From contig CP084167.1 in the NCBI GenBank assembly GCA_021513715.1, positions 1,760,001 to 1,824,000 on the forward strand: a stretch of 64,000 bases of DNA, written 5' to 3'. This document shows positions 42,609 to 45,599 of this stretch, piece after piece. The notes beneath the pieces are model-generated. The model searched no databases, was not told where the DNA came from, and worked only from the letters and a program-made list of their open reading frames with translations. Within the stretch, counting starts at the first letter, position 1. Each line of letters opens with the position of its first letter. The translations under genes and the position numbers were made by a program. Source of the stretch: Candidatus Heimdallarchaeum endolithica. GTDB lineage: Archaea > Asgardarchaeota > Heimdallarchaeia > Heimdallarchaeales > Heimdallarchaeaceae.

Positions 42609-45599
42609 ATGGAAAATATTGAAGCTATTTGTATCAAAGTTCTATCTCAAAGGAAAGGAGAAAATCCTCTTACTTGTTTATTAGTTGAAGTAAGCAAAAT
42701 TCAATATGTTCTCAATCTTTGGTCTCCTTGGAATGGAATAGGTGACTATATTCAACCATATACAAAAATACGTGTTTTCAACGTAGACAAAAAAGAATAC
42801 AATGATTCAACCTATTATTCTGCAGGAAAAAAGGCTATAGTTGTCGTTGACCCTGATATTTTAATGAATGCTTCAACTATTGGAAATATATCCTATTGTC
42901 CTAGAAGTTATTACATTAGTGAAAAAATGGGAGATACTCTTTCTCCCTTATCTGCTATAAAAGGAACAATCGTTCATGTAGCTTTGAGTACGGCAATCGC
43001 AACTAGTAGTTCTCCTTTGGAAGTTTTATCTGATGTTATTGATTACTATTCAATCCAATTCGAGCAATTAGGCTATTCTCGTGAAATCATTGAAGCAGAA
43101 GTTTATAAAATGGTAGAAGCATTAGATAAATTCATTAATAGCTTGCCTGCAGAGACAATCCCAGAGTCACTCTTTTTTTCACCATATTTAGGGATCAGAG
43201 GGAGAATAGATGTGCTTGCAGAACAAATTTACGAACTTAAAACAGCCAAATTGGGTACAGATGATGAAGCCCGATTTTCAGATATGATGCAAGTAACGTT
43301 ATACGCTTTTGGTTTAACAGATATGAAAGAAAATATTGCACAAACTGATGGAACTGTTTTATATGTTGGGTCAGAAACTCTTCAACCAAAAAAAGTAAAC
43401 ATTAGTTGGGGAATCTTAAGGTATGCTATTCAAATGCGTAACATTGCTTATAGAATTTCTTTTTTGGATTATGTTCCTCCAATTCTTAATGATAAACAAT
43501 CCAGAAAATGCAACAAATGTTCAGTTCAAGTTATGTGTAGTCTTTTTTGCGCAGGATTAAATCAATTTAGAAGTTGTGACATATGTAACCACGCTAGTTT
43601 TTGCAGCAAAACAGCTTTACCTAAAAAAGAACAAGAATATTTCAATAAATATAGTTATTTATTATCTCAGGAAAGATTAGAAACAAACCGTAATTTAGCT
43701 GATTTGTGGAATCTTTCGCTAAAAGAGAGAATAGAAAAAGGGAAAACTATTAATGATTTAGTGTTAAAAAACGAAATTTTAGAAAATGGTATAAGAACAT
43801 TAGTTTTTTCATGTGATAATCAATCAGAAATAAGAGAAGGAGATGTTATCATTTTAAGTGATGGGGATGTAATTTCTAGCCCTATTAGTACAGGAACAGT
43901 AACTAATATTACTTCAACATCTATAGAAATAGAAACAAAAGCTCATCCTGAAAAAGTTTCTGTAATTGATTTATATTCTATTGATGTGGGATTTAATCGT
44001 CAACAAAGAGGATTATTCAACTTTATTTTTAAATCCAATGACTTTAAAAAGATAATCTTGGATCATAAACCTCCCGTTATAAAAAAAGTCAAAGGAAATT
44101 TTGTACCCAACAATTCATCTCAAAATGAAGCTATACAAAAGATTCTTGGTACTGAAAATTACTTATTAATTCAAGGACCTGCAGGAACAGGAAAAACGCA
44201 TGTAATTGCCAAATCTGCAATTTTACTCGCTGATAAAAAAGAGAAGGTTCTTTTAACAGCTTATACAAATCGAGCTGTTGACAACATGTGTAAATATCTA
44301 TTAGAAAATGGTTATCAAAACTTTGTTAGGTTAGGATCTACACATGCTACACAGAGAGAAATAAGAAAATACACTTTATTTTCTATATTAAAGAAAAATA
44401 AGAATAAAAAAGTACTTGACATCCTTGATAAATATCCAATAATTGTTGCGACAACATCCACTATTTCTTCACCAGTCTATTCTAATCTCGGAATACAAAT
44501 AGTAATAGTTGATGAAGCGAGCCAAATGACTGAAACAACTCTTCTTTCTGCTTTAATAGAAGGTAAAAAATTTATTCTTGTTGGAGATCACAAGCAATTA
44601 CCCCCTGTTATTCAAAGTGTGGTGTGTAAAAACGAAGGATTTGACATTTCATTATTTGAAAAATTAGCCAAATCTAATCCTCAATTTGTACATTTATTAA
44701 GAATCCAATTTAGAATGAATGAGAAAATAATGGAATTTTCAAATAAAAAGTTTTATGAGAACAAACTAGAATGTTTTGATAACCTAATTGCACTTCAAAA
44801 CTTATATGACTTAGGAAATTTCGCAGGCGATTTTCAGAAATTTGAAAATAATACTATCTATGACCCAAAAATGCCTTTAGTATACGTTCAAGTAAACGGA
44901 AAATTCAATCCTGAAAAAAAACTGAATGCTATGGAAGCTGAAATTGTTGCTACAATAGCTAAAAACTTTTTGAGATTAGGAATAAGCACTGAACAGATTG
45001 GAGTTATTGCACCCTATCGAGGGCAAGTAGGTGAAATAAGAAGATTTATACCTAGTGTTTCAGTCGATACCGTAGATAGGTTTCAAGGTTCTGACCGAGA
45101 GATTATAATTCTCTCATTAACAGAAGCAAATATTCACGGTTTCAAGGGATTTTCAGATGAAAGAAGACTCAATGTTGCTATTACGCGGGCTAAAAAGAAA
45201 CTTGTAGTAGTTGGAAACCCAAATCTTACTGAGGGAGAGTTAGGAGAGTACATTAGTTATCTAAGAGATAATGTAGAAAATGTTCAAGTTAAAGAGATAG
45301 AAGAAAAAGAAGAATTAATAGAAAAACAAATAAGAACGGTTATAGTTGCTGATTCCATATCAAAAGTTGCTTCATTTTTTAAAAAAGTTAAGGCAAAAGG
45401 AAAAGAGTTATACAAATCAAAAGAAGAAATAAACAAATGTCCAATTTGTTTCCAACAAGTTTATGAGAATGCTATTCAATGTCCAATTTGTGAAAAACTT
45501 TATCATTATACTCACTTAATCCAATGGATTAAAGAAAAAGGAAGATGCCCTTACTGCAAAACATCTTTATCTATATATTCTGTCTATGCAGAAGAGTAA
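42609..45599 (+). CDS. Dna2-like Fe-S nuclease / SF1 helicase with C-terminal RING finger
   Basis: DPDILM...YCPR, GIRGRID...ELKT, CNKC...C; QGPAGTGKT, DEASQ, GDHKQLPP, QFRMN, TVDRFQG, RLNVAITRAK; RING CPIC...CPIC...HYTH...W...CPYC. Confidence 0.88.
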   Translation: MENIEAICIKVLSQRKGENPLTCLLVEVSKIQYVLNLWSPWNGIGDYIQPYTKIRVFNVDKKEYNDSTYYSAGKKAIVVVDPDILMNASTIGNISYCPRSYYISEKMGDTLSPLSAIKGTIVHVALSTAIATSSSPLEVLSDVIDYYSIQFEQLGYSREIIEAEVYKMVEALDKFINSLPAETIPESLFFSPYLGIRGRIDVLAEQIYELKTAKLGTDDEARFSDMMQVTLYAFGLTDMKENIAQTDGTVLYVGSETLQPKKVNISWGILRYAIQMRNIAYRISFLDYVPPILNDKQSRKCNKCSVQVMCSLFCAGLNQFRSCDICNHASFCSKTALPKKEQEYFNKYSYLLSQERLETNRNLADLWNLSLKERIEKGKTINDLVLKNEILENGIRTLVFSCDNQSEIREGDVIILSDGDVISSPISTGTVTNITSTSIEIETKAHPEKVSVIDLYSIDVGFNRQQRGLFNFIFKSNDFKKIILDHKPPVIKKVKGNFVPNNSSQNEAIQKILGTENYLLIQGPAGTGKTHVIAKSAILLADKKEKVLLTAYTNRAVDNMCKYLLENGYQNFVRLGSTHATQREIRKYTLFSILKKNKNKKVLDILDKYPIIVATTSTISSPVYSNLGIQIVIVDEASQMTETTLLSALIEGKKFILVGDHKQLPPVIQSVVCKNEGFDISLFEKLAKSNPQFVHLLRIQFRMNEKIMEFSNKKFYENKLECFDNLIALQNLYDLGNFAGDFQKFENNTIYDPKMPLVYVQVNGKFNPEKKLNAMEAEIVATIAKNFLRLGISTEQIGVIAPYRGQVGEIRRFIPSVSVDTVDRFQGSDREIIILSLTEANIHGFKGFSDERRLNVAITRAKKKLVVVGNPNLTEGELGEYISYLRDNVENVQVKEIEEKEELIEKQIRTVIVADSISKVASFFKKVKAKGKELYKSKEEINKCPICFQQVYENAIQCPICEKLYHYTHLIQWIKEKGRCPYCKTSLSIYSVYAEE

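Follow-up and report, generated by a model that had tools for sequence, protein, structure and literature searches.

In a window of 64,000 nucleotides from the genome of Candidatus Heimdallarchaeum endolithica (contig CP084167.1, positions 1,760,001 to 1,824,000), we analyze one gene, here called dna2-RING (42609-45599, + strand; unprefixed coordinates are positions in the window), whose 996-amino-acid product joins a Dna2-type nuclease-helicase to a C-terminal RING finger. Our analysis confirms that the gene encodes a Dna2-type enzyme with intact catalytic motifs, and structure prediction confirms the tail as a true RING fold. The presence of a RING on Dna2 suggests, without proving, that ubiquitin tagging is tied to DNA maintenance in Heimdall archaea.

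The open reading frame (ORF) is complete, with an ATG start and zero internal stops, and the window lies within a single 3.33-Mb contig. The closest protein, the orthologue of Ca. Heimdallarchaeum aukensis, is 93% identical. The junction is supported elsewhere as well: contigs from two public runs, produced by two other studies, span the region from the helicase to the linker or the start of the RING (44394-45433 and 44901-45480). Because of these bridging contigs, and because the fusion recurs in sequences of 48 other genomes, we rule out an assembly chimera. A promoter and terminator scan gave matches at chance level only, and the public runs listed for this DNA included no RNA run.

A complete Dna2 core

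The original prediction, made from the DNA sequence alone, had described a full Dna2 layout: an N-terminal region resembling an oligonucleotide-binding (OB) fold, a PD-(D/E)xK nuclease with 1+3 Cys ligands, and the motifs of a superfamily 1B (SF1B) helicase. Domain searches, residue conservation and structure prediction all bear this out. The Pfam Dna2 model PF08696 matches residues 50-179 with 44.7 bits (cut-off 22.4), its only match in the genome, while PDDEXK_1 covers residues 88-310 and AAA_11/AAA_12 residues 594-871. Mouse Dna2 is the best solved relative by sequence (E 1.5e-60). An AlphaFold2 model of the full chain (predicted local distance difference test, pLDDT, 88.5; predicted template modeling score, pTM, 0.89) superposes in Foldseek on the mouse structures 5ean, 5eaw and 5eax with template modeling (TM) scores of 0.72-0.73 over about 1030 columns, and its order of OB domain, nuclease, stalk and beta barrel, and helicase domains 1A and 2A is that of Dna2 (PMC4716839).

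The predicted OB-like beta domain (residues 1-80; 42609-42848) consists of strands at residues 2-15, 21-28, 31-38, 52-64 and 67-72, modeled at a pLDDT of about 90 and supported by the whole-chain structure match. Its first strand opens the chain, and the acidic alpha1 helix with which mouse Dna2 binds RPA70N is not present. The nuclease with its predicted iron-sulfur (Fe-S) staple follows (42849-43544), its cluster ligands being C97 (at 42897) and C301, C304 and C310 (43509-43538), and its active-site residues including D201, E209 and K211 (43209-43241). Stalk helices and a beta-barrel (1B) domain (43605-44090; helix 339-363, strands within 385-455, helix 460-474 in the model) lead to the SF1B, Upf1-like helicase domains 1A and 2A (44091-45233), with Walker A at 44175-44198 and DEASQ at 44511-44525. 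In an alignment of 64 homologues, the nuclease residues H123, E186, D201, E209, K211, Q228 and Y232, the four Fe-S cysteines, Walker A (GPAGTGKT, residues 523-530) and DEASQ (635-639) are all invariant or nearly so; the helicase positions Q505, Q663, R702, TVDRFQG, R853 and R860 are likewise invariant or close to it. The helicase is followed by a 68-residue linker (residues 876-943; 45234-45437), 35% of which is Lys or Glu as against 16% of the whole protein; it is poorly conserved between families and partly of low confidence in the model.

Directly behind the nuclease we found a feature that the original prediction did not mention, a second four-Cys site with the pattern C314-x8-C323-x2-C326-x5-C332 (43548-43604). 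It is probably an extra metal site, binding either Zn or an Fe-S cluster. All 27 sequences compared from the host's family have it, as do other RING-bearing families (f2 and f4 in the coding introduced below) and several RING-less bacterial sister proteins; it was not found in the f5, haloarchaeal or eukaryotic Dna2 sequences compared.

The tail is a RING of the archaeal srfp type

The finger occupies 45438-45560, in agreement with the position first proposed for it (about 45438-45558), and its spacing, also as first proposed, is exactly C-x2-C-x10-C-x2-C-x4-H-x2-H-x3-W-x6-C-P-x-C, with ligands C944, C947, C958, C961, H966, H969, C980 and C983. On their own, the last 72 residues score 30.9 bits with the Pfam zf-RING_2 model (cut-off 27.3), and their best sequence relatives are the RING domains of TRIM37, RNF126 and Arkadia. 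In a separate model of the tail, with a core pLDDT of 86-95, RING and U-box domains are the top matches in both structure searches, including VIA (Z 7.2; root-mean-square deviation 2.9 over 59 residues) and HRD1, RNF165 and Prp19 (1.2-1.5 Å over 46-49 residues). None of the eight zinc ligands varies among the four families, whose sequences are 26-60% identical. The ligand order, C4-H2-C2 with four residues preceding the first His, departs from the canonical RING-H2 (C3H2C3) spacing and prompted us to consider a PHD finger; none was among the structural matches listed, and the Trp occupies the RING helix position, making a PHD finger unlikely. The modeled fold confirms the RING assignment.

The unusual order has an archaeal precedent. 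The RING protein of Caldiarchaeum subterraneum has the spacing C-X2-C-X11-C-X2-C-X4-H-X2-C-X10-C-X2-C (PMC3082918), and this protein, srfp (CSUB_C1477), is an active ubiquitin ligase (E3) that needs I30, W58 and R69 for ubiquitylation (PMC5654768). The counterparts in Dna2-RING are I946, W973 and the linchpin K984, separated by 27 and 11 residues where srfp has 28 and 11; P981 is a further E2-contact counterpart. These three positions are I/V, W and K/R in 28/28 sequences of the host's family and in nearly all f4 sequences, and the f5 finger retains the Trp and a hydrophobic loop-1 residue. By spacing and contact residues, then, the finger is of the archaeal srfp type, for which E3 activity has been demonstrated.

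The fusion is conserved within one class and probably arose once

We searched 400 Asgard genomes, 83 of them from Heimdallarchaeia, with families coded such that f1 is the host's. The full-length form is present in 52 of the 83, distributed over four families (30/30 other f1 genomes, 1/1 in f2, 9/12 in f4 and 11/22 in f5), and among the 400 it is limited to this class. A survey of homologues had been proposed to see whether the fusion recurs in relatives; it does, the finger being present in 49/49 distinct sequences with a complete C-terminus. The haloarchaeal, bacterial and animal Dna2 proteins examined all end past the helicase and carry no RING, and so do the long Dna2-like forms found in Lokiarchaeia and f7; this agrees with the earlier statement that eukaryotic Dna2 is not known to carry one. 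We also ran a profile spanning the end of the helicase and the RING against 1.84 billion representatives. Every full-length match was a protein related most closely to f1, f2, f4 or f5 sequences, and no other lineage with the fusion appeared among the best 150 matches. When the RING region by itself was used as query, a word-based search gave the H. aukensis protein and no other match, which is uninformative.

In a maximum-likelihood tree built from the nuclease and helicase columns only, under a mixture model, the proteins with a RING fall into a single clade (93/92) that is sister to RING-less bacterial proteins (93/86). The second four-Cys site, shared by f1, f2, f4 and several of these bacterial sisters, is an independent character that agrees with the tree. 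An earlier quick tree of the helicase alone had separated f4 from the other RING families, which the longer alignment and the mixture model united. On this sequence evidence, the simplest reading is that the RING was gained once, in an ancestor within Heimdallarchaeia. A recent survey of the Asgard replisome reports an apparent relationship between eukaryotic Dna2 and some of the Asgard proteins, treating Dna2 by phylogeny only and with a text that includes neither RING nor ubiquitin (PMC12680538). A grouping of the RING-bearing and eukaryotic Dna2 proteins was not recovered in our tree, in which eukaryotes are represented by animals and one unlabelled sequence, but the approximately unbiased test does not reject it (p 0.17).

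Separately, the Dna2-like protein of f7 (locus L137:2493-6098) is 1150-1200 residues long and has neither a CxxC-x5-C motif nor a RING. Its nearest relatives, at about 37%, are labelled Chloroflexi, an affinity that suggests replacement by transfer.

The host has a ubiquitin cascade, and the finger family follows it

The prediction had noted that Asgard archaea encode ubiquitin, an activating enzyme (E1), a conjugating enzyme (E2) and RING proteins, and we identified all of these in the host genome. Ubiquitin and E1 (C1:1707729) lie inside a cluster of genes for the endosomal sorting complex required for transport (ESCRT), and the catalytic E2 (C1:1876002), whose PF and PA loops are invariant, is encoded elsewhere. 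This E2 is present in 80/83 genomes of Heimdallarchaeia, the class to which the fusion is confined; this distribution favors the prediction, which would have suffered had the fusion been common in lineages lacking ubiquitin. The finger family as a whole occurs in 297/400 Asgard genomes. The Asgard families without the finger are those without E2 (f8, f22-f25 and f30); in the last Asgard group, the finger is found in 4/89 genomes and E2 in 3/89. The sole f24 genome with a RING is the one with an E2. Such co-occurrence links this family of domains with the ubiquitin cascade, with the proviso that related genomes are not independent observations.

Several proteins of this cascade and finger family deserve description in their own right. 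The host ubiquitin (C1:1707416-1707652), beside E1 in the ESCRT cluster, ends in Gly-Gly-Phe and would therefore require trimming by one residue before use. A superfamily 2 (SF2) ResIII/DEAD helicase (C1:200900-203890; L196:101-3091) carries the same type of RING at its N-terminus, behind a zinc ribbon, giving the host genome two different helicase-RING fusions. Two predicted membrane proteins (L198:81-4022 and L005:1477-2688) have large N-terminal regions, a transmembrane helix and a C-terminal RING; one of the two has FG-GAP and TSP3 repeats, and the predicted layout of both is that of a receptor-like E3. A winged-helix repeat protein with a weak PCI match (C1:1477613-1479490; L197:114-1991) ends in a zinc ribbon and a RING. 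Within the window, and away from the ESCRT-ubiquitin cluster, 59418-60083 (- strand) encodes a Vps23-like ubiquitin E2 variant (UEV) domain without the catalytic Cys, followed by a coiled coil.

Does the RING act as a ubiquitin ligase?

On balance, we consider the RING to be probably an active E3 carried by a housekeeping Dna2. In the mechanism that we propose by analogy with eukaryotic Dna2, a single chromosomal enzyme would receive a 5' single-stranded end threaded through the Fe-S-stapled nuclease tunnel, and its SF1B motor would move on the strand while the nuclease cuts, processing flaps and ends in replication and repair. In a Heimdallarchaeia ancestor, this enzyme gained a C-terminal RING of the srfp family which, given the Caldiarchaeum precedent and the retained contact residues, most likely binds the ubiquitin-charged host E2 and acts as an E3. 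Tethered to helicase domain 2A by the flexible linker, it could mark whatever is near the engaged DNA; candidate substrates are Dna2 itself, allowing turnover of a hazardous nuclease, or single-strand proteins such as RPA. A bolder proposal, which we put forward only tentatively, is that Dna2-RING is a DNA-activated ubiquitin ligase in which threading of a flap or resected end would trigger ubiquitylation of single-strand proteins (e.g., RPA) or of the enzyme itself. Heimdallarchaeia would then possess a ubiquitin-controlled response to DNA damage or in replication, one that evolved among archaea either separately from the eukaryotic ligases RFWD3, Rad18 and Rad5 or ahead of them.

Several observations weigh against this reading. 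Six unrelated proteins of the host genome carry the finger too (seven copies in all), among them the SF2 helicase, the membrane proteins and the PCI-like protein, and Heimdallarchaeia genomes hold up to 15 or more copies; with so promiscuous a finger, the Dna2 fusion may have been opportunistic, like many others. No ubiquitin gene lies next to dna2-RING, and the full-length form was not found in f3, f6, f7 and half of f5 in the Asgard genome search, so it is dispensable at the level of the class. In host PCNA, moreover, Pro stands at the position of yeast K164, and the next-but-one residue is a Lys. The finger itself also varies: ligand 6 is His where srfp has Cys, the f2 finger is shortened and lacks the Trp helix turn, and in 11/11 f5 copies Pro981 is replaced by Val and the linchpin by Gln.

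Taken from an abundant Asgard family, the tail could instead be a RING fold without catalysis, a zinc module for dimerization or a handle for partners, as in RAG1 or BARD1-type RINGs. The His at ligand 6 and the range of fusion partners fit such a module, as does the loss in f5 of the Pro and the basic linchpin while the zinc ligands stay invariant. We nonetheless think it unlikely, as I/V946, W973, P981 and K/R984, which serve E2 contact only, are kept in 28/28 f1 and nearly all f4 sequences, and the finger family co-occurs with E2 across Asgard. Prediction of a complex between the RING and the host E2 scored 0.08 against a mark of 0.32, and we do not use it as evidence.

Genomic neighborhood

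In f1 the gene sits in a stable housekeeping neighborhood, with a TrmB-coiled-coil gene and a peptide-binding protein as constant neighbors; the f4 neighbors are variable. The TrmB helix-turn-helix and long coiled-coil gene (39350-41618, + strand) is a 761-residue ORF in H. aukensis and other relatives, and is here split into 244 and 489 residues by a frame change near 40089-40105, which is either a sequencing error or a pseudogene. In f7, the long Dna2-like gene without a RING has a similar 762-residue gene at its side.

The f5 loci differ: at each one read, an Eco57I/TaqI_C methyltransferase gene comes directly after dna2-RING, at a distance of 0-20 bp (as at L157:6001-10649 and L158:6001-10679), and more methyltransferases, of the N6/N4 type, often lie close by. 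Such neighbors, together with the presence of the gene in only 11/22 f5 genomes, would suit a sensor or effector that degrades invading DNA and ubiquitylates in response to foreign nucleic acid, analogous to ZNFX1, in which E3 domains accompany an SF1 helicase, or to defence proteins with a Dna2 domain; the nearest RING-less relatives are likewise sporadic bacterial proteins. The f1 gene, however, is single-copy, universal in its family and placed among housekeeping genes, and the f5 loci lie at a conserved chromosomal site (with AlaX and YdjM neighbors). Against the defence models ProA (Prometheus), Hhe and PLuB, the protein scores 61, 49 and 270 bits, far under the cut-offs of 1500, 2000 and 999, and Pfam found neither DUF4011 nor DUF3320 of the Dna2-domain defence proteins. 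We regard a defence role as improbable for the protein in general, while in the f5 branch the methyltransferase neighbor leaves room for a role in defence or one linked to methylation.

Downstream, rfcL (45615-47186, - strand; NCBIfam PRK04195 above cut-off) converges on dna2-RING at a distance of 15 bp and ends in a PCNA-interacting peptide (PIP) box, QPSLDEFF (45621-45644). The original prediction had pointed to both the convergence and the PIP box, and both are present; as a functional hint they fail, since the adjacency is incidental and specific to the genus Heimdallarchaeum. A module resembling Rad18 or Rad5, in which the RING would ubiquitylate PCNA at stalled forks together with rfcL, could draw on this adjacency and on a second genus, where rfcL lies on the opposite side at about 4 kb. 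Convergent and genus-limited, the arrangement is absent beside the f4 and f5 copies; no PIP box was found in the Dna2-RING protein, and the Pro in host PCNA leaves K164 unsupported as a substrate, which makes this reading weak and, in our estimate, highly improbable. Upstream and divergent from dna2-RING lies a PLD-like gene with a single HKD motif and a weak DrmC-like match (42003-42515, - strand), a neighbor in two genera only. Synteny rules out both this gene and rfcL as parts of a system.

Comparison with known systems

Dna2-RING had been put forward as a candidate for an undescribed system. The fusion is indeed not described in the literature that we searched (subscription papers and the supplements of PMC12680538 lay outside its scope), but it amounts to one fused protein and not to a multi-gene system. 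Few native substrates of archaeal ubiquitin are known so far, and they indicate ESCRT (UEV-Vps23). With its conserved RING, the Dna2 of this class allows one to ask concretely, on a single protein, whether ubiquitin was wired into genome maintenance already among the archaea nearest to eukaryotes; every enzyme of the cascade is identifiable in one closed genome.

Eukaryotic Dna2, represented by the mouse enzyme (5EAN/5EAW/5EAX; PMC4716839), is the best match in sequence and structure and has the same domain order and 1+3 Cys Fe-S staple. It lacks the C-terminal RING and the second four-Cys site and has the RPA-binding alpha1 helix that Dna2-RING lacks, and in our tree Dna2-RING groups instead with prokaryotic Dna2-like proteins. 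The latter, from haloarchaea, from Sericytochromatia-labelled and other bacteria, and in the long forms of Lokiarchaeia and f7, share the core without the RING.

On the ligase side, Caldiarchaeum srfp (PMC3082918, PMC5654768) and a Helarchaeia RING E3 (10.1101/2023.07.25.550441) have the same spacing with a CxxC-x4-H core; with srfp, Dna2-RING has the I30/W58/R69 counterparts in common, in a host with a matching set of E1, E2 and ubiquitin. Both are small stand-alone proteins encoded in ubiquitin operons, whereas the finger described here, a predicted E3 with His as ligand 6, is fused to a 940-residue DNA enzyme away from the operon.

Each part of Dna2-RING belongs to a kind already known, and eukaryotes have helicase-ligase fusions of their own. 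Rad5, HLTF and SHPRH combine an SF2 translocase with a RING in one chain, and UPF1, through its CH domain, unites motor and ligase within the same helicase subfamily as Dna2-RING. ZNFX1, an SF1 RNA helicase whose E3 domains are of the RZ and Miz-like types (10.1101/2025.10.14.682297), likewise has a motor of that subfamily and a ligase in one chain. All of these differ from Dna2-RING in their ligase domains and the positions of these, have no nuclease, and are not homologous to it as fusions, so that the parallel is one of analogy only.

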